From contig CAWIEK010000046.1 of assembly GCA_963835065.1 (NCBI GenBank), positions 32,001-96,000 on the forward strand: DNA of 64,000 nt, written 5' to 3'. A program made the position numbers and the translations under genes. A model generated the notes under the pieces. The model was not told the DNA's origin. It saw nothing but the letters and a program-made list of their open reading frames with translations, and made no database searches. Origin of the DNA: an uncultured Chthonomonadaceae bacterium. GTDB taxonomy: Bacteria; Armatimonadota; Chthonomonadetes; Chthonomonadales; Chthonomonadaceae. This document shows, piece by piece, positions 8,043-46,440 of this stretch; the stretch's first letter is position 1; each line of letters opens with the position of its first letter.

Positions 8043-8190
8043 GCCGGATACTGAAAGTACCCGGCAGGAAAGTACAAGCGTCCTGCGGACGCGGGAGTTT
8101 TTATGAAGAATTGTATCCGTAGGAATTTTCCTACAGAGGTGCGTCCGCAGGACGCTTGTTTTGTCCTGCCGGGTACTTTCAGTACCCGGC
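8043..8190. repeat. REP/REPIN-like doublet (gccgggtactgaaagtacccggc + gcgtcctgcggacgc family)
   Basis: Two inverted copies of hairpin-forming units; same family at 37398-37449 and 42698-42836. Confidence 0.85.
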
Positions 8191-8318
8191 ACAAACAGAA
8201 GAAGCCATCTTCACAGCAGGCGTTGATGACACCATCTTATCTGTTTATAGCCTCCCCTCTCCTAGCGCGTTGCGCGGCCAGGAGAGGGGCCGTGTCCACA
8301 AGTGGACGCCCGGTGAGG

Positions 8319-17175: not shown

Positions 17176-17244
17176 TCGTCTCCTTCCATCTTACTTCCTA
17201 CAGAAAAATAAACAAAAATAAAACGTCAGCCAACGCAAAAAAGC

Positions 17245-17273
17245 GAACCTTTTGCCCCACACATCCTGTCTAA
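17245..17273 (+). promoter_or_regulatory. ECF-sigma-type promoter (copy 1)
   Basis: GAACCT-17 nt-GTCTAA, conserved with GAAACT-16 nt-GTCTAA at 37332-37305 while the surrounding sequence diverges. Confidence 0.6.
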
Positions 17274-17279
17274 TAGTAG

Positions 17280-17532
17280 TATAATGTCTGCTATACAGAC
17301 AAGAAGGCTGAACGTTGGCAGTTCCTCTCAACTCTCAACCTAACAACTAACAACCTAAAACCCTAAAACCCTAACCCAGAAGGGAGGCGCAAGAAGATGC
17401 CTGTCCACACCCGCCCGCCCTGACGCTGCTGAGGTCACGACGCCTCTCTCCTACAACTTGACACAACGAGACATCGGGCTGGAAGCGCTGCATTGCCAAG
17501 ATTTCGACGATGCCTCTACATACTCTTTTTTC
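17280..17532 (+). ncRNA. Candidate sRNA / micro-ORF transcript, copy 1 (MPVHTRPP-UGA at 17397-17423)
   Basis: 107-nt core 17416-17522 matches the reverse complement of 37081-37187 with 8 mismatches; SD GGGAGG; ends in a U-rich tract. Confidence 0.55.
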
Positions 17533-17578
17533 TACCTAACCGTTTCCCAACGTTTGCAGGACTTTCCACTGCCAGAGG

Positions 17579-19636
17579 TCAGGCTTCTTGCGGTTGAGAC
17601 GGCGCGCTGTTTTGAATCGCGGACAGCATCACTTCGGCTACGTCAAGAACGGGCGGAGCAGACTCGCCTGCTACTTGCGCAAGACTGTCGCCTACCATCA
17701 CTTTGCAGAACGGGCAGCCTACCGCAACCGTTTTCGCGCCCGTCGCTACAATCTCTTCCGCGCGGTTTTTGCCGGGGCGTTGATTGGCCGGTTCTTCCAT
17801 CCACATCCGCCCGCCGCCCGCGCCGCAGCAGAAGGTTTTGCTTTCCCGCCGTTCCAATTCTACAAGCGGGATTACGGACGCGCCATTGAGAAGTTTGCGC
17901 GGCGCGGCAGTTTCGCCGTTCACGCGCGCCAGAAAGCACGGATCGTGGTATGTTACCGTATCCTCATAGGCTGCGGGCAGTTTCAATTTCCCGGCTTCAA
18001 CCAACGCCTGCAAATACTGCGTGTGGTGCATCACATCGTAATTGCCGCCGAACTGCGGGTACTCGTTTTTAAGTGTGTGGAAGCAATGCGGGCAGGAAGT
18101 GACCACCTGTTTTGCCCCAATGCCGTCTAGCGTGGCGATGTTAGCTTCGGCAAGCTGCTGAAACAAGAACTCGTCGCCCGTCCGCCGCGCCGGGTCGCCG
18201 GTACAGCGCTCTTTCGGGCCAAGTATCGTAAATTTGACGCCCGCCTGCTGCAACAATTGTGCCAAAGCGCGTATTGTTTTCTGCGCCCGCGCATCAAACG
18301 CGCCCGCGCAGCCCACCCACAACAACACTTCGCGCTCGTCCGCAGCCGACGCCGTTTGCACATCAAGATTTTTCGCCCAATCCAAACGCTGCGACGCGGG
18401 CAATCCCCACGGGTTTTCCCTGCTGCCCAACTGCCGCAGCATGGTTGCCGCGCTGCCGGACAAGCGCCCTTCCGCCACCCGGAACCGCCGGATGCCGTCC
18501 AGAATATCCACGTGCCGAATCAGCGCGGGACATTCGCGGACACAGGCGTGGCAATTGGTACAGGCCCACAAGGATTCATCGGAGATTATGTCCGTAGACG
18601 GGCTATTGACAACCGAAACGCCCTCCGCCTGCGCCTGCGCGTCGGCTTCCAGCGCTTGCGGCGACTTTTCGCCCATCATGCGGCGCAAATCCAGCACCAC
18701 TTGCTTCGGATTGAGTTCCTTGCCGACGGCGTTTGCGGGGCATACATCGGTACACCGCCCGCACTCCATGCAGGCATCCAAACTCATCAATTGCCATCTG
18801 TCCATATCGGCAATCGCGCCCAAGCCGATACGCCCGGTTTCCTCCACCTGCGCCATTGCTACGGGTTCCAGTACGCCCATCGGACGCTCCGGCTGAAACG
18901 CGATGCTCAGGGGCGCGACAAACAGATGCAGCCAGCGTCCATACGGCAGCGCGGCAATCACGCCCAAAACAAGCGGCGCGTGAAGCCACCACAGCAGGGC
19001 ATAGTTCGTCGGCGACAACCAATGCAGCGCGTGGTAAGAACGGGCAAACACAGCGCCGACAGGAGAAAAGGCCATATAGGGAGCGCGAGTCGGGTCGGCT
19101 TCCAGTCCCGCGCCTTCCAGCATAAAACCGCTGACAGTTGCGGCCAGCAGCAAGGCCAGAAAAGCGTCGTCCTTCCAAGAGTGGTTCAGGTTGGGAGAAT
19201 GCGGACTGTGCCGCCGAACCAATGCCATCACGGTTCCCACAATCAGCCCCAACCCGAAAACATCCATACTCAACTTGCACAGCAGATAAAACCAGCCCCG
19301 GTACAGCCAGTGTTCGCCAAAAACAAATGCGCCATAGTGTTCAAGGCTGACGATATTCGTGCCGATGAACAATACCAACATGCCAAAAAAGATCAGGGCG
19401 TGAAACCAGCCCGCCACCTTGCGCCGCCGCGTCCGCCGGTGCGCAACCGCTTGGTCAAACAAGGTTCGCAGGCGTCCGGGCCAGTCCTGCATTTTGGGAA
19501 CCGGCTGTCCCTGCCGCCACAAAATCACCCGCCGCAAAACGCCCCACGCGCAAACCGCCAGCGCAATCACCGCCAGCGCGTAAAACGCGATTTGCTGCGC
19601 CCCCGAAATATGAAAAAAGATCGTTCGTGTTGCCAT
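17579..19636 (-). CDS. Membrane-bound Fe-S oxidoreductase (FadF/GlpC/HdrD-like; ETF partner)
   Basis: N-terminal TMs, CMECGRCTDVCP and CTNCHACVRECP ferredoxin motifs, CCG domains (YHDPCFL, CCGAGGG). Confidence 0.92.
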   Translation of the reverse strand: MATRTIFFHISGAQQIAFYALAVIALAVCAWGVLRRVILWRQGQPVPKMQDWPGRLRTLFDQAVAHRRTRRRKVAGWFHALIFFGMLVLFIGTNIVSLEHYGAFVFGEHWLYRGWFYLLCKLSMDVFGLGLIVGTVMALVRRHSPHSPNLNHSWKDDAFLALLLAATVSGFMLEGAGLEADPTRAPYMAFSPVGAVFARSYHALHWLSPTNYALLWWLHAPLVLGVIAALPYGRWLHLFVAPLSIAFQPERPMGVLEPVAMAQVEETGRIGLGAIADMDRWQLMSLDACMECGRCTDVCPANAVGKELNPKQVVLDLRRMMGEKSPQALEADAQAQAEGVSVVNSPSTDIISDESLWACTNCHACVRECPALIRHVDILDGIRRFRVAEGRLSGSAATMLRQLGSRENPWGLPASQRLDWAKNLDVQTASAADEREVLLWVGCAGAFDARAQKTIRALAQLLQQAGVKFTILGPKERCTGDPARRTGDEFLFQQLAEANIATLDGIGAKQVVTSCPHCFHTLKNEYPQFGGNYDVMHHTQYLQALVEAGKLKLPAAYEDTVTYHDPCFLARVNGETAAPRKLLNGASVIPLVELERRESKTFCCGAGGGRMWMEEPANQRPGKNRAEEIVATGAKTVAVGCPFCKVMVGDSLAQVAGESAPPVLDVAEVMLSAIQNSAPSQPQEA

Positions 19637-37070: not shown

Positions 37071-37298
37071 GAAAAAGAAATATGTAGAGTCATCGTCGAA
37101 ATCTTGGCAATACAGCGCTTTCAGCCCGATGTCTCGTTGTGTCTGGTTGTAGGAGAGAGGCATCATGGCCTCAGCAGCGTCAGGGCGAACGGGGAGAGTG
37201 ACCAGGCATTGTCTCACACCTCCTTTCCGGGTGAGTTGATAGTTGATAGGAACTTCGACTTTCAACGGCCCGCCACCTGGCTGATTAGTAGATATATG
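37071..37298 (-). ncRNA. Candidate sRNA / micro-ORF transcript, copy 2 (MPGHSPRSP-UGA at 37209-37180)
   Basis: Paralogue of 17280-17532; SD AAAGGAGGTG; same core and U-rich end. Confidence 0.55.
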
Positions 37299-37304
37299 TC
37301 TGTA

Positions 37305-37332
37305 TTAGACGGGCGGATGGGGCGGTAGTTTC
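37305..37332 (-). promoter_or_regulatory. ECF-sigma-type promoter (copy 2)
   Basis: GAAACT-16 nt-GTCTAA on the minus strand, preceded by an A-tract as in copy 1. Confidence 0.6.
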
Positions 37333-37397
37333 GTTTTTTTTGCTTTTTTGATCTTTTTTTCTGGTTTCTTGGATTGTTGCTGTTGGGAGAACGATAG

Positions 37398-37449
37398 GCC
37401 GGGGCTTTGCAATCCCCGGTCGGAAAGCGCAAGCGTCCTGCGGACGCGG
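37398..37449. repeat. Single REP-like unit of the 8043/42698 family
   Basis: gccggggctttgcaatccccgg...gcgtcctgcggacgc. Confidence 0.75.
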
Positions 37450-37474: not shown

Positions 37475-38362
37475 TTATAATGCAAGAAGCGCCTGCGTTT
37501 TGGGATTGTCACTAAACGGTTCGTGTTCGGGCAGGTTGAAGTTGGCGATTAGAACTTCACGATTGAGGACGCGCGTGTTGCCGTTCTTTTCCGTGTTCAT
37601 GCCGGACGCCGATTGAACAGCGATTGTAAAGGCGTTTGGGAACAAAGCATGGATTTGGGGCGTGTCGTAGGAGGAATATATCCATTGGCAGGTGGAACGT
37701 CGCAGCCGTGCCGCCAGTTCCTCATGCTCCTCCCATGTTCGCATGTTGTGCTTGTAGTTGCAGCCGTTTTCCGGGTAGGGAGGGTCAACGTACAGGACGG
37801 TTCCGGCGCGGTCATAACGATCAAGGCACTGCCGCCAATCCAGACATTCGATAATAACGGAGCGTAAACGGTTATGCACAGGTTTCAAGCGTTCCTGAAG
37901 CGTCTTCAGTGCGCCGATGAGACGATTGCCGCCGCCACCATCCGTAATACTGGTTTGAAAGCGGGGGTAGTCCAGTTCGCCGCCCCATCCCGCCATGATT
38001 AGGTAGTAAAAACGATGGGCGCGTTGTACTTCATCAAGTTGTATTGGATCAAGACCGGCAAGGCGCTGAAACTCGGCGCGGGCGACAAGTTCCCATTCAA
38101 AGGATTGAAGCAATTTTTCGGGACAGTGTTTTACGATGCGAAAAAAGTTGATGAGTTCCTGGTCAACATCATTGAGGACTTCTACAGGACTCGGCGGCTT
38201 GCCGAACAACACCCACGCGCCCCCGGCAAACGGCTCTACGTAGCAGGTATGCGGAGGAAGCAGGGGAATGATCTGTTTTCGCAAGCGTGATTTGCCGCCG
38301 ACCCATCGAATGGGACTGTTGATGGTTTTGTACTCGGTGGAAGGGGCGTTTTTGGCTGCCAT
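37475..38362 (-). CDS. DNA adenine methyltransferase (Dam/D12 class), orphan
   Basis: PIRWVGGKSRL, YVEPFAGG, EVLNDV, YVDPPY; no adjacent endonuclease recognised. Confidence 0.93.
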   Translation of the reverse strand: MAAKNAPSTEYKTINSPIRWVGGKSRLRKQIIPLLPPHTCYVEPFAGGAWVLFGKPPSPVEVLNDVDQELINFFRIVKHCPEKLLQSFEWELVARAEFQRLAGLDPIQLDEVQRAHRFYYLIMAGWGGELDYPRFQTSITDGGGGNRLIGALKTLQERLKPVHNRLRSVIIECLDWRQCLDRYDRAGTVLYVDPPYPENGCNYKHNMRTWEEHEELAARLRRSTCQWIYSSYDTPQIHALFPNAFTIAVQSASGMNTEKNGNTRVLNREVLIANFNLPEHEPFSDNPKTQALLAL

Positions 38363-38543: not shown

Positions 38544-38996
38544 ATGGAGCCATTTGGAGACGAAATACTTGCAGCACAATTCAAAGACTTCTGTGGTGAG
38601 AAACGCTTTCGTAAATTTTTGGATGAACTGAATACAACATGTCGTGAGAAAGGACGGTTGCTTTTCTGGCAGCAAGACCTTTGGGACGCTTTTGTACTTA
38701 CGCACAACGAGTACGCCTGTATCTCCTTTGAATACCTTGCGGCTCCGATAGTTTCCTGTCCCGTTCATGGCTGCTTCTTCCAACCAGATCGTGTTCCCAT
38801 TTGTTACGGCCTAATAAGATTTACACCGGGCTATTGGGAAACAAGAAACACATATTTCCCATACGCGAATACCCTCATTCTAGGCGGTTGCGAAGTAGAT
38901 GAGCAGAGCGAAGGGGACGTAATGTATTGTCCCGAATGTCGCCGCGCCGAGCAGATATGGGAGCAAGAGCGAATTGCCTCAAGGGGGCCGAAGTAG
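38544..38996 (+). CDS. Hypothetical protein with CPxH / CPEC zinc-binding motifs (cassette 1)
   Basis: GGGAGGTG RBS; CPVH...LGGC...YCPEC. Confidence 0.75.
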   Translation: MEPFGDEILAAQFKDFCGEKRFRKFLDELNTTCREKGRLLFWQQDLWDAFVLTHNEYACISFEYLAAPIVSCPVHGCFFQPDRVPICYGLIRFTPGYWETRNTYFPYANTLILGGCEVDEQSEGDVMYCPECRRAEQIWEQERIASRGPK

Positions 38997-39003
38997 GGAA
39001 ACC

Positions 39004-39087
39004 ATGCAGAGATGTGAGGAATCCTTTATACCCGGAACTGATGATTTTACTGACGTGAAATGCCACAGGTATGTGTGACAGGGAGTG
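39004..39087 (+). repeat. Cassette-separating repeat, copy B
   Basis: atgcagagatgtgaggaatcctttatacccggaactgatgattttactgacgtgaaatgccacaggtatgtgtgacagggagtg. Confidence 0.85.
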
Positions 39088-39119
39088 TTCTGTGATGCTT
39101 TGCAGAAGGCTGATGGTAA

Positions 39120-39551
39120 ATGGAGAGTATTGGCACTAGCCAGTGTCTCCACAGGACAACCAATATGAAGCCTATTAACCTGATGCTGCCAAAACATCGC
39201 CGCCCAACCATTCATAAACTCATGCAGGGATTGAAGCGCGTCGCCAATGCTGTTTGGCTCGTCATCGTCGTGATTGTTGCAGGCCCTATGTTATTCCCCT
39301 TCTGGTTGCTGGACGAGGTGAAAACGAAACTCACACAATGCCGAAATTGTAGTCGCATAGGAGGCTTACGAAAATACGATCCTGAAAAGTATGGAGCCAC
39401 ATATTATCTTTGTATGCGTTGCAAGACTCGTTATCTGAACTATCGCGGTACATGGCAGGATGCTTCGGCTCCTGAATACGATGATAAATTCGGTAAGCAT
39501 CGGAATGTGCGCCCCCTACTTCGCGCCGAAAAAGACCAGAAGAGAGCCTGA
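39120..39551 (+). CDS. Hypothetical TM + zinc-ribbon protein (cassette 2; start may be 39165 or 39222)
   Basis: One TM, CRNC...CMRC. Confidence 0.65.
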   Translation: MESIGTSQCLHRTTNMKPINLMLPKHRRPTIHKLMQGLKRVANAVWLVIVVIVAGPMLFPFWLLDEVKTKLTQCRNCSRIGGLRKYDPEKYGATYYLCMRCKTRYLNYRGTWQDASAPEYDDKFGKHRNVRPLLRAEKDQKRA

Positions 39552-39633
39552 TGCAGACATTCGAGGAAAATACATACCCGGAACTTTGCCTTTTCAGGAC
39601 GGTAAATATCACAAGTATATTTGACAGGGAGTG
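39551..39633 (+). repeat. Cassette-separating repeat, copy C
   Basis: atgcagacattcgaggaaaatacatacccggaactttgccttttcaggacggtaaatatcacaagtatatttgacagggagtg; overlaps the upstream stop (TGATG). Confidence 0.85.
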
Positions 39634-39681
39634 CTTCGAGCCGCTTGCAGGATTCGGGCGGATTATGGCGAATGGGGAAAT

Positions 39682-40539
39682 ATGAAACGTCGTCTGCTAT
39701 TTGTGTCCGTGTTGGTTGTCGCTCTTCTGGTGAGTGGCTGCGGCCTGTCGGTGTGGCAGGCGAAGCGGCAGTATACGCTTAACCGGCAGTTGGTCGCGGC
39801 TCTGCTGAATAACGACAACAAACAGGCAATCGCTCTTGTCAACGCAGGAGCCGACCCGAACACACCCTATGCCACGCCGCCTGCGCCTTCCTTCAAACGG
39901 TTGCTGAATCAGCTGCTGCATCGTTCGTCTCCCCCTCCCCATAACGATCTCTGGGCGTTTTTATTTGTCTGTGGAGAAGGATGGGAACTAGACAATGGCG
40001 TCTTTGCGGATCACCGCACGGAAGATGTATACTTGGTTCAATCCATGCTGGAATATGGCGCGGATTGCAAGGGCGTAGATTCGGAAAATCATTCGGCTCT
40101 ATCTTGGGCCGCTTTACGCAGTCGTATCCATCTCACGCAACTACTGTTGGAACACGGTGCGAACGTCAATCAACAGGATACTTCTGGCAACACTCCCCTG
40201 ATGTATGCAGTTCGACACTTTGATGTAAACATGACACGCCTTCTGCTGGAGCATGGTGCGGATGTTTCCCTCAAAAATAAGTGGGAAGTCACAGCCTTAT
40301 ATGATGTCGTAAGTGAGTGTAGGCACCCCCACAACCACCACAACACAGATATTCTTCATCTTCTGCTGGCACATGGAGCCAACCCAAACCAACCTAGTGT
40401 AGACAACGGGACTCCCCTATGGCTTGCACAAAGTCGAGGAGAGGCCGATATTGTTACTCTGCTGCAAAAAGGCGCAAAACAGCACAAAGGCAGAAGCGGC
40501 AGGAGCAGGAGAGCGCAGGATGGAGCCGATGATGGGTAA
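39682..40539 (+). CDS. Exported ankyrin-repeat protein (cassette 3)
   Basis: Signal/lipobox-like N-terminus (LVSGC); LLEHGANVN, GNTPLMYA, LLEHGADV, GTPLWLA. Confidence 0.9.
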   Translation: MKRRLLFVSVLVVALLVSGCGLSVWQAKRQYTLNRQLVAALLNNDNKQAIALVNAGADPNTPYATPPAPSFKRLLNQLLHRSSPPPHNDLWAFLFVCGEGWELDNGVFADHRTEDVYLVQSMLEYGADCKGVDSENHSALSWAALRSRIHLTQLLLEHGANVNQQDTSGNTPLMYAVRHFDVNMTRLLLEHGADVSLKNKWEVTALYDVVSECRHPHNHHNTDILHLLLAHGANPNQPSVDNGTPLWLAQSRGEADIVTLLQKGAKQHKGRSGRSRRAQDGADDG

Positions 40540-40608
40540 GCGGATTGTGAGTAGGGGCACATATGTGAACAGGCAGGTACAGGGACAATAAGGCAGGTGT
40601 CAATTTCC

Positions 40609-41256
40609 ATGATTACTCCACAAGAATTTGCTCTTCGCTGGCAAGATACGCAGATTGACACTCAAATTGCCCGTTTAGTGGCAGAAAACGCCGATTACAA
40701 CTATGCTGACAACGTGTGGGGTTGTTCACCGCTCGTTCGCTATGAACTCAATGTAGTGAATAATCTGCCACTTTCAGAAGAAGCCAAACACTTCCTTTGC
40801 GAAGCCGGACTGCCTAGCCAGATATTCGATTGGCGTCTTGATCATCTACCTGGAAACCTTCCGCCGCTGCCAAATGCGATGGAGGGATATTATTTTCCAG
40901 AGGGTTATTCCCGTTATCGTGTGCTGGGAGCGGCATTTTGGAAAGAGTTGGAGATATGTTTCGGGTTTCTCTGCCTCGATCTGGAAGCAGACGGTCGTGT
41001 TGTGGCTATCTGGTCAGGATTTGAGGAGGCTCAGTTTCTAAATTCCAGCATTGCTCAGTTTGCCGAGTACGTTTTGCTGTTCCGCGACTTCAATGAATGG
41101 TGTTCCATTCATCATCCCTATCCTCTTTCGGAGCCAGAGGACACAGGTATAAATCAGCATATTGAACAAGTGCTTGAGCAACTCAAGCTCGTTGACCCAC
41201 ATGTGCATGACTACGACTGGTTAAACCAGCCTTGGTCTGTACAAGTGCCTCCATAG
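40609..41256 (+). CDS. SUKH-4-like immunity protein
   Basis: LSEEAKHFLCEAGLP ... LCLDLEADGRVV ... FLNSSIAQF ... LKLVDP pattern typical of the SUKH-4 family. Confidence 0.7.
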   Translation: MITPQEFALRWQDTQIDTQIARLVAENADYNYADNVWGCSPLVRYELNVVNNLPLSEEAKHFLCEAGLPSQIFDWRLDHLPGNLPPLPNAMEGYYFPEGYSRYRVLGAAFWKELEICFGFLCLDLEADGRVVAIWSGFEEAQFLNSSIAQFAEYVLLFRDFNEWCSIHHPYPLSEPEDTGINQHIEQVLEQLKLVDPHVHDYDWLNQPWSVQVPP

Positions 41257-42668: not shown

Positions 42669-42697
42669 ACCCCCGCGCTAAAAGTTTCTCCCAATTG

Positions 42698-42836
42698 GCC
42701 GGGTACTGAAAGTACCCGGCAGGAAAGGTCAAGCGTCCTGCGGACGCGGGAATCTTGCATGTAGAAGATCGCGTCCGAAGGACGTTTGTTTTTTGTTGCC
42801 GGGTACTGAAAGTACCCGGCACTGTCCTGCGGACGC
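42698..42836. repeat. REP/REPIN-like cluster of the 8043 family
   Basis: Two gccgggtactgaaagtacccggc units plus gtcctgcggacgc hairpins. Confidence 0.85.
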
Positions 42837-46074: not shown

Positions 46075-46440
46075 ATGAAACCCAAGCACACGCCCATACG
46101 CACCTGCGTTGCCTGCCGCGAAACAGATGAGAAACGCGACTTGCTGCGCATTGTGCGGCAACCCGATGGAATGCTCCGCTATGACCCGAAAGGCAAACTG
46201 TCGGGGCGGGGCGCCTACCTTTGCGCGCGGACAAGCTGCATTACGCTGGCCCGCAAGCAAAAAAAGCTGGAACGCTCGCTCAAAGTGAGCGGCGTCCCGG
46301 CAACCCTGTTCGATGAACTCAACGCACAGGTTGCATTAAACCCTTCGCCGGAAACCATAGCATCCACGCTGCCCCTTCCCACAGCCCCGGCTGAACCGGA
46401 AGGCGCAGATGCCGAAGCGCCATCTGAATTAGGAACTTGA
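46075..46440 (+). CDS. ylxR: YlxR (DUF448) RNA-binding protein
   Basis: PIRTCVAC, LLRIVR, GRGAYLC; position between nusA and infB. Confidence 0.92.
   Translation: MKPKHTPIRTCVACRETDEKRDLLRIVRQPDGMLRYDPKGKLSGRGAYLCARTSCITLARKQKKLERSLKVSGVPATLFDELNAQVALNPSPETIASTLPLPTAPAEPEGADAEAPSELGT

Follow-up and report, generated by a model that had tools for sequence, protein, structure and literature searches.

A genus-restricted, high-copy mini-gene and structured RNA spread by two transposon families in the Chthonomonadaceae

Two loci in a window of 64,000 nt, the window being the whole stretch of DNA that was analysed, belong to what sequence comparison indicates is a real, strongly constrained and genus-restricted family, in which a high-copy mini-gene is joined to a structured RNA, which has been spread by two insertion-sequence (IS) families and which falls into no known family. 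It is probably a stand-alone RNA family that is both transcribed and translated. Bacterial MITEs are commonly taken for parasites in decay; in this family it is the transposon ends that decay, and the cargo stays intact in nearly all copies. The window comes from a Chthonomonadaceae genome (G000, 92% complete), and two genomes of the same genus, G001 and G002 (the latter 80% complete), were compared with it. The parts of the two window copies are the following, with positions given in the window.

17204..17244, plus strand: phased A-tracts of copy 1, UP-element-like, upstream of the promoter (from the sequence; A-tracts also in the family logo)
17245..17273, plus strand: predicted ECF-type promoter of copy 1, GAACCT-17-GTCTAA (from the sequence, the family motif and the divergence of the boxes)
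17286..17291, plus strand: second -10-like hexamer of copy 1, GTCTGC (GTCTAC in the family), a candidate sigma-dependent pause element
17308..17376, plus strand: variable leader of copy 1 with 7-mer repeats, which other copies can do without (from the sequence)
17382..17387, plus strand: Shine-Dalgarno (SD) sequence of copy 1, GGGAGG (from the sequence; 0.9% divergence)
17397..17423, plus strand: micro-ORF of copy 1, MPVHTRPP-UGA
17431..17446, plus strand: hairpin P1 of copy 1, GAGGU/GCCUC with the loop CACGAC, 7 nt past the stop (pair counts)
17468..17522, plus strand: long hairpin P2/P3 of copy 1 with the apical AGCGCUGYAUUGCCA, then UACAUA (pair counts, invariance)
17523..17595, plus strand: U-rich tail of copy 1 and 3' arm common to ISAzo13-type copies, which stops short of the terminal inverted repeat
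37305..37332, minus strand: predicted ECF-type promoter of copy 2, GAAACT-16-GTCTAA (from the sequence)
37288..37293, minus strand: second -10-like hexamer of copy 2, ATCTAC (from the sequence)
37219..37223, minus strand: SD sequence of copy 2, GGAGG (from the sequence)
37180..37209, minus strand: micro-ORF of copy 2, MPGHSPRSP-UGA (from the sequence)
37071..37172, minus strand: structured core and U-rich tail of copy 2, with P1 at 37172-37157 and P2/P3 at 37135-37087
37394..37447, minus strand: REP-like palindromic repeat directly behind copy 2 (from the sequence)

The original prediction had described a common layout of promoter boxes, A-tracts, 7-mer repeats, SD sequences, micro-ORFs and U-rich tails at the two loci, an ungapped core of 107 nt with 8 mismatches between copies 1 and 2, and a convergent gene in front of each copy. 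All of this was confirmed in the sequence, the convergent neighbours being a CCG/Fe-S oxidoreductase and an apiosidase-like hydrolase. The leader with 7-mer repeats is indeed present in both window copies, but the long form is absent from many copies of the family, in which the distance from the -10 box to the stop is mostly 65-166 nt. Likewise, both loci are real but "duplicated" understates the case, as they are not a pair but 2 of 162 copies in G000 (blastn). No intrinsic terminator was found at copy 1, and the search at copy 2 gave a weak hairpin without a U-run. The tail of copy 1 (17523..17595) aligns locally to C44_334480 and C3_20050 over about 73 nt.

Behind copy 2 lies a D12 adenine methyltransferase gene (37475-38362, minus strand) with a 96% identical second copy at G000:C53:417356-418320. 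Four small same-strand genes in low-GC DNA (two unknown, one ankyrin, one SUKH-4) occupy 38544-41256, where G002 has 1.4 kb of other DNA. REP-like palindromic repeats are found at 2516-2595, 8092-8200, 42690-42830 and 37394-37447 of the window, three of them as inverted pairs, and a related REP-like repeat is present at the empty G002 site corresponding to copy 2. The REP family, with about 130 sites in G000, served as the control for the placement tests described below.

The 162 near-full copies of the core in G000 were obtained by blastn against the whole genome, and a profile search of the same genome found none beyond these. A covariance model built from 27 copies gave 47 matches in G002 and 13 in G001, none in 39 other genomes of the family (83 candidates scored per genome) and none in 150 genomes of the phylum (23 candidates scored per genome); weak relatives outside the genus could be missed at these numbers of candidates. 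Among the genomes searched, the unit was seen in one genus only. Without one unparsed match and one 3' fragment, 45 copies were parsed in G002, which makes 220 parsed copies together with 162 from G000 and 13 from G001. Viral contigs contained no copies, and a pattern scan of GTDB returned at least 29 matches. Four metagenome matches were rejected, as the rest of the unit is missing there and they have the look of coding sequence. A single copy in a Solirubrobacteraceae assembly (L113; G066:C7 near 46182-46340, L124) has neither promoter nor SD and sits between a 5'-truncated actinobacterial PBP-like gene and lower-GC DNA with frameshifted genes; because it is promoterless and lies at such a junction, it is probably a chimeric join in the assembly, and transfer was rejected. 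The expectation that no known Rfam family is involved held, with no match at the gathering threshold in the 64,000-nt window and with weak matches only (best E 0.057, to miRNA models) when four loci were compared with the Rfam covariance models. Literature on Armatimonad or Chthonomonas repeats, on ECF-promoter MITE sRNAs and on conserved-cargo MITEs yielded nothing relevant within a search whose scope excluded most subscription journals.

The Pro-stop end of the micro-ORF, first noticed at the two window loci, recurs in 218 of the 220 parsed copies, the two exceptions ending in Thr and Ser. An in-frame start codon stands behind the SD in 207/220 copies, and the ORF mostly comprises 8-9 codons, with up to 16 in G001. 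Position -3 is Arg in 198, Leu in 13, His in 6 and Gly in 1 (n = 218), while position -2 is Ser, Pro, Ala or Gln, and two consecutive prolines precede the stop in 59/218 copies. The N-terminal residues vary freely, giving dozens of peptide variants, and the last three codons alone are constrained. All four Pro codons and all four CGN Arg codons are used, the stop is TGA, TAA or TAG in 183, 34 and 1 copies, respectively, and the base after it is C in 193/218. Along a tree built without these codons, the Pro codon shows 38 changes at position 3 and 0 at positions 1 and 2; the anchor pattern demanded CCN in G001 and G002, and in G000 CGN or CTN could pass. Such codon usage shows a peptide-level constraint on (R/L/H)-(S/P/A/Q)-P-stop, and the ORF behaves as a translated one.

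The micro-ORF is followed by a fold that is best seen in the alignment. Its three helices, P1 of 5 bp with a six-base loop, P2 of 9 bp and P3 of 5 bp, are paired in 100, 86 and 98% of cells in 27 sequences; overall, 93.9% of cells pair, a value that 0/500 shuffles reach, and slid controls pair in 42-57%. Pair counts on the same 27 sequences support the helices that had been proposed, GAGGY/GCCUC and GAGACAUCG/CGAUGnCUC. The alternative helix between the SD and GCCUC, also proposed, is not kept, the 3' strand of P1 being GCCAC in the G001 copies. Four pairs are changed on both sides and one compensatory pair lies in P1; these two-sided changes come mostly from one small G001 clade of four sequences, and no variation is seen in the three apical pairs. 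Folded one at a time, the RNAs do no better than shuffled sequences (z 0.16 to 1.44 in four folds of the window copies). The apical 15-mer AGCGCUGYAUUGCCA is invariant apart from Y in 218/218 copies, and it was also the anchor for the G001 and G002 copies. Its self-complementary AGCGCU (window 17484-17489, with an equivalent in all copies) is a possible kissing-loop dimerisation site. The linker between P1 and P2 is variable (20-29 nt). The spacer from the stop to P1 is 7 nt long in 208/218 copies, and its last three bases change 64-79 times on the tree although its length stays. When a stop codon is in the A site of the ribosome, a 7-nt spacer puts P1 at the mRNA entry channel, so the fixed spacer would tie the RNA structure to the position of the ribosome.

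A hairpin with conserved loops at a fixed short distance past a stop is also typical of SECIS and of readthrough or frameshift stimulators. In the unit, however, all three stops occur and indels in the linker break the downstream frame, so no recoded product is conserved. With TAA in 34 copies and TAG in 1, the stops do not follow the selenoprotein pattern, although the genome does have a tRNA-Sec. Frameshift, readthrough and selenocysteine readings were dropped because almost all differences in the +1 frame of the core are non-synonymous and no frame survives the linker indels once the whole family is considered. The reading of the core as a decayed fragment of a protein gene was rejected as well: both window copies leave the +1 frame open, yet the differences between them there are almost all non-synonymous.

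The ECF-type motif is found in 156/162 copies (regex). A second -10-like hexamer with at most one mismatch is present in 142/156 parsed ECF copies, as compared with 4.8% in shuffles, nearly always 16-21 nt from the first -10 box; its conservation fits sigma-dependent pausing (PMC9191641). About 15 copies, mostly from G001 and G002, have an upstream motif with TTCTAA replacing the ECF boxes or beside them, which suggests that the promoter is exchangeable while the ORF and RNA stay. Twelve intergenic matches to the ECF motif lie outside the copies, and the cognate ECF sigma factor was not picked out among 51 sigma matches. At G000:C11:129891-131366, an ECF sigma gene is divergent from a membrane-protein-like gene with GAACC-16-GTCTG, and it is a candidate for the cognate sigma. 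A G001 subfamily (L060, L063, L066, L069, L072) shows non-ATG starts and ORFs of 15-16 codons; its leader is long and structured, and upstream stands a CAACATATAGT motif reminiscent of the NrdR box.

The mobility of the unit is evident from comparison of the genomes. Both window sites are empty in G002, the closer relative of G000 (flanking genes 76-85% identical), where the flanking genes are 70 and 75 nt apart as against about 700 and 400 nt in G000. The copies that resemble one another most closely end sharply in a 19-bp inverted repeat (IR). The consensus of this ISAs1-type IR is identical to the IRL of an intact ISAs1-family element of G002 (L129/L130, PF13808), and a second group of copies ends in the IR of an ISAzo13 element (G000:C41, PF07592) and its 80-bp derivatives. 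An IS-type IR is kept in 70/162 copies (31 ISAs1, 42 ISAzo13, 3 both) compared with 11/600 control gaps, the other 92 copies having no recognisable IR. Neither window copy carries an IR of either type, copy 1 keeping the inner ISAzo13-type 3' arm only. ISAs1 elements are marked by CAGGG ends and a 10-bp target duplication; among 17 candidates with both ends, the ten-base duplication matches at 10/10 in five, 9/10 in three, 7/10 in one and 5 or fewer in eight. Full ISAs1-type copies, 453-476 bp long, contain the micro-ORF only and no transposase, and no ISAs1 transposase was found in G000 or G001. The IS inverted repeats and the five perfect duplications indicate that MITE shells spread the unit, and part of the family is, by these sequence signs, made up of true MITEs; MITE status does not account for the cargo. 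A match to an IS end, which the original prediction had named as a way in which it could fail, thus applies to 70 copies but leaves the cargo unaccounted for, since that part is conserved in spite of the decay of the IS ends.

This contrast was quantified in 13 full ISAs1-type copies, in which the IRs show 56/494 deviations and the core 0/546. Divergence from the consensus in these copies is 10-14% in the ends and arms and 20% in the promoter spacer, as compared with 1.5% in the -35 box, 0 in the -10 box, 0.9% in the SD, 0.6% in R-x-P-stop, 2.4% in P1 and 3.6% in the long hairpin. Forty-two sites set as invariant from G001 and G002 alone have 9 deviations among 6804 in the 162 G000 copies, the core count of 0/546 for the 13 copies having been taken at these sites too, and the cargo stays intact in copies with mutated or lost IRs. 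The suspicion that the core is constrained is therefore well founded for the promoter boxes, the SD and the end of the ORF as well as for the core itself. Among the 45 G002 copies examined are 40 with an orthologous flank, of which at least 11 share their place with a G000 copy, the cargo being intact, so some insertions predate the split of the two species. Taken together, conserved cargo in nearly all 162 copies and its pickup by two IS families point to selection at the level of the host, acting on a non-coding gene of very high copy number and of a kind that Rfam does not contain. Correia and RUP elements are bacterial MITEs or cargo-carrying non-autonomous elements, and the unit resembles this class in having no transposase, an internal promoter and relatives with empty sites. 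Borrowed IS inverted repeats and target duplications are likewise features of this class, in which TIME (PMC4133298) is also counted. Unlike such elements, the unit is one cargo in the shells of two unrelated IS families that outlives its shells; purifying selection acts on almost all of its copies, and these are spaced evenly and with a preferred direction.

What the unit does can be proposed with less confidence. We tentatively favour, at somewhat less than an even chance, a ribosome trap: an ECF-induced RNA would load a ribosome and hold it at the Pro-stop, and its many copies would form a reversible brake on translation. An ECF sigma factor would fire the promoter under stress and the strong SD would load a ribosome, whereupon a nascent xSP, xPP or xAP with the stop codon in the A site would slow the release of the peptide. 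P1 would then stand at the mRNA entry channel, and P1 with the long hairpin could protect the message against trimming and rescue, or offer a factor a docking site in the invariant loops. Ribosomes and tRNA-Pro would be tied up by the many copies. The biases in orientation described below would be a side cost, since, with no clear terminator to stop transcription, copies that fire into the following gene or into low-GC DNA of foreign origin would be purged.

Several published systems lend plausibility to these steps. NSP-stop and NAP-stop peptides are reported to arrest the ribosome while the stop codon occupies the A site, the residues at -3 and -1 being required (PMC10987492), and RAP in the P site blocks the catalytic centre (PMC10951233). 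NSP-stop and NAP-stop, RAPP (PMC10987492; PMC10951233), TnaC and PepNL (PMC11890864) have in common with the unit a C-terminal x-S/A/P-P, a stop codon in the A site and constrained positions -3 and -1; overexpression of TnaC depletes tRNA-Pro (PMC11890864). It speaks against the brake that the majority of the natural RAPP-like sequences that have been tested stalled only if a suitable N-terminal part was present (PMC10987492), and the micro-ORF peptide is mostly of 8-9 residues; the shuffle-like folding of the single RNAs and the origin of most two-sided changes in one small G001 clade also count against it. Arrest peptides linked to Sec or YidC are encoded by long uORFs, carry N-terminal localisation signals and control in cis the gene that follows; the unit, by contrast, has a short ORF without a common downstream gene, followed by 100 nt of conserved RNA.

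The nearest likeness is to CreT of Pseudomonas aeruginosa, for which bioRxiv 10.64898/2026.06.02.729485 describes its own promoter, a strong SD, a mini-ORF ending in PP-stop and a hairpin that together form a bacteriostatic RNA toxin; the likeness to CreT RNA toxins (PMC10097628) extends to the proposed action on translation. The SD, mini-ORF and hairpin of CreT/CreTA are all found in the unit; the cas locus is not, and the two prolines that the Pseudomonas toxin needs occur in so few copies (59/218) that they count against the brake. CreT belongs to cas loci, has a CreA guide and a hairpin that only stabilises, whose sequence and spacing are irrelevant, whereas the unit is dispersed in 162 copies, has an ECF-type promoter, ends mostly in R-S-P-stop and keeps its loop sequences and its spacer fixed, which likewise counts against the brake. 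No link of the unit to an antitoxin or to cas was found, the copies being dispersed among unrelated neighbours, and 81 spacer-like pieces from a crude array finder had best matches of 14 nt to the element regions with flanks. By analogy the unit would work like a CreT-type or arrest-peptide RNA and yet is a member of neither class, because it has no cas link, two prolines in a minority of copies and no regulated downstream gene. If the ribosome trap is true, RNA toxins of CreT type extend beyond CRISPR loci to a dormancy stress regulon, a new kind of translation brake exists, and 220 natural variants map the minimal needs of Pro-stop arrest.

A trans-acting dosage role does not by itself explain where the copies lie. 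Copies avoid each other: 4/105 gaps between them are shorter than 10 kb, whereas 27 +/- 4 are expected from four null sets and the REP control is clustered (26 such gaps, 18.5 expected); in G002, 0/36 gaps are shorter than 13 kb (3.4 expected, p 0.026). The sole pair less than 8 kb apart (G000:C30:36854-38129) is a tandem duplication with an ATT start and a degenerate promoter. Median gaps are 21 kb for facing, 36 kb for tandem and 47.5 kb for back-to-back pairs (permutation p 0.0002), the shortest back-to-back gap being 15.8 kb; G002 has the same order, facing < tandem < back-to-back, which is not significant there (p 0.21). The avoidance within about 8 kb in all orientations and the closeness of facing as compared with back-to-back pairs would both be left unexplained by dosage alone, and the spacing and its direction fit a role in cis better than a trans brake. 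There is no replichore bias (74 vs 88), and neighbouring copies are no more alike than random pairs.

The copies are also oriented with respect to the DNA around them. For 5-7 kb, GC is 0.553 behind the promoter and 0.582 ahead of it, and native-looking coding sequence is 0.61 behind and 0.82 ahead over the same distance (p about 1e-11), with the REP control symmetric. GC is lower behind in 107/146 copies of G000, 12/13 of G001 and 21/22 of G002, where 22 of the 47 copies have long enough flanks, and the asymmetry holds in copies with or without IS ends. The sites themselves (0.551/0.588) are only slightly more asymmetric than ordinary long gaps (0.559/0.584), so the bias is one of orientation and not of choice of site. 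Restriction-modification (RM) genes and AAA/DUF4276 are among the genes behind the copies; in the window, ankyrin and SUKH genes are found there. Six loci picked for low GC behind the unit, and window copy 2, were compared with G002 and G001. In one of them the unit and 5.4 kb with type ISP RM and AAA/DUF4276 genes are missing together in G002, two have the variable DNA without the unit, one has different subfamilies at nearly one spot with different DNA behind, and three are too rearranged for reading. One site thus fits a cargo-carrying island, a reading that was not adopted because self-contained copies with both IRs show equal GC asymmetry (10/14) and variable regions exist without the unit. 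H-NS-type proteins silence foreign DNA and attract transposons (PMC11335895); by analogy they could set the sites of insertion and would not obviously set the direction.

Possibly, though doubtfully, the family is a domesticated, transposon-delivered network of oriented elements, about one per 50 kb and at no point close to each other, that turn their backs to accessory DNA and act as a directional boundary or as a genome-wide stress brake. Its components would be an ECF-paused polymerase, a ribosome held at the Pro-stop and the structured RNA. If true, this would be a bacterial counterpart of insulators or of SINE-like stress RNAs, made from coupled transcription and translation. A role in cis, the main rival to the ribosome trap, which we consider unlikely yet deserving of attention, would make each copy a roadblock or boundary in which the sigma-paused polymerase and the stalled ribosome are oriented between low-GC accessory DNA behind and core genes ahead; it might act against incoming transcription, the spreading of a xenogeneic silencer or the diffusion of supercoils. 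The mutual avoidance, the directional gaps, the low GC behind, the conserved second -10-like hexamer and the constraint on every copy speak for such a role, and an oriented boundary element for the bacterial chromosome would follow from it. Against it stand the near-ordinary asymmetry of the sites, islands that are not bracketed on both sides, positions mostly not common to the species (11/40 G002 copies with an orthologous flank), variable regions of G002 without the unit and the lack of significance for directional spacing in G002.

The position of the downstream genes bears on two further readings. The next gene is convergent in 98/161 cases and no neighbour family recurs among the copies, so the claim that the unit is not the leader of a downstream CDS was borne out and a cis-leader was rejected. 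In tandem gaps the unit is antisense in 62 cases and sense in 26 (p 1.6e-4). This bias, the want of an intrinsic terminator at copy 1 and the C-rich, G-poor linker and tail would suit a mobile ECF promoter with a tna-like attenuator, in which stalling at the Pro-stop decides the loading of Rho on the C-rich linker and hence sense or antisense readthrough; in tnaC, it is the loading of Rho that is blocked. We regard this as improbable, since the downstream genes are without a common family and mostly convergent and the positions turn over between species, so that no common regulated output is apparent.

Still more improbable is a selfish element, whose conservation would reflect selection among copies for mobility, through recruitment of a transposase or an RNA intermediate, and not benefit to the host. 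A copy number that varies from 13 to 47 and 162, ends supplied by two IS families and confinement to one genus among the genomes searched agree with it. It is weakened by the contrast between the decay of shell and core, since copies with mutated IRs or none keep an intact cargo, and also by the at least 11 intact positions common to two species; moreover, the promoter would lie outside any RNA intermediate and the reverse transcriptase (RT) genes of the genus are not linked to the copies. The least probable reading is a base-pairing sRNA or an active micropeptide whose ORF merely stabilises the RNA, which the stand-alone layout, the invariant unpaired segments and the ECF-type promoter would allow and which freely varying N-terminal residues, a fixed 7-nt spacer that ties the structure to the ribosome and short, by eye chance-like matches of the conserved segments in the genome, rRNA and tRNAs speak against; the dual-function sRNA of the original prediction found no support: constraint is confined to the final three codons, and the search of rRNA, tRNA and mRNA for complementarity gave nothing beyond short matches.

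Some minor observations concern mobile DNA in these genomes. A link to Y1/RAYT transposases was rejected, as these are present in all five genomes tested, two of them without the unit. A link to RTs, retrons or group II introns was also rejected: G000 has two RT genes, neither among the nearest neighbours of any copy. One, of 476-503 aa (L054 = G000:C50:51195-54827, L053, L052), is present in all three genomes of the genus and absent from two other family genomes tested; it adjoins what we take to be a SWIM/BRCT-like gene and presumably is retron-like. The second adjoins genes that we assume to be cas1/cas2-like. At the G002 loci L005, L011, L077, L080, L117, L118 and L120, the two flanks of the copy lie at separate locations in G000. 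Copies may thus mark breakpoints of rearrangement, and the ISAs1-type copies C11_2207 and C2_238976 have flanks that are apparently swapped. In G002, L065:772-905 is the ISAs1 element reduced to 134 bp by an internal deletion, and it keeps both ends. Stand-alone ISAzo13-derived MITEs of 80-95 bp occur at G000:C1:156876-156960, C12:84343-84426, C2:10599-10692 and elsewhere, and several of them hold a GTAG-type REP hairpin.
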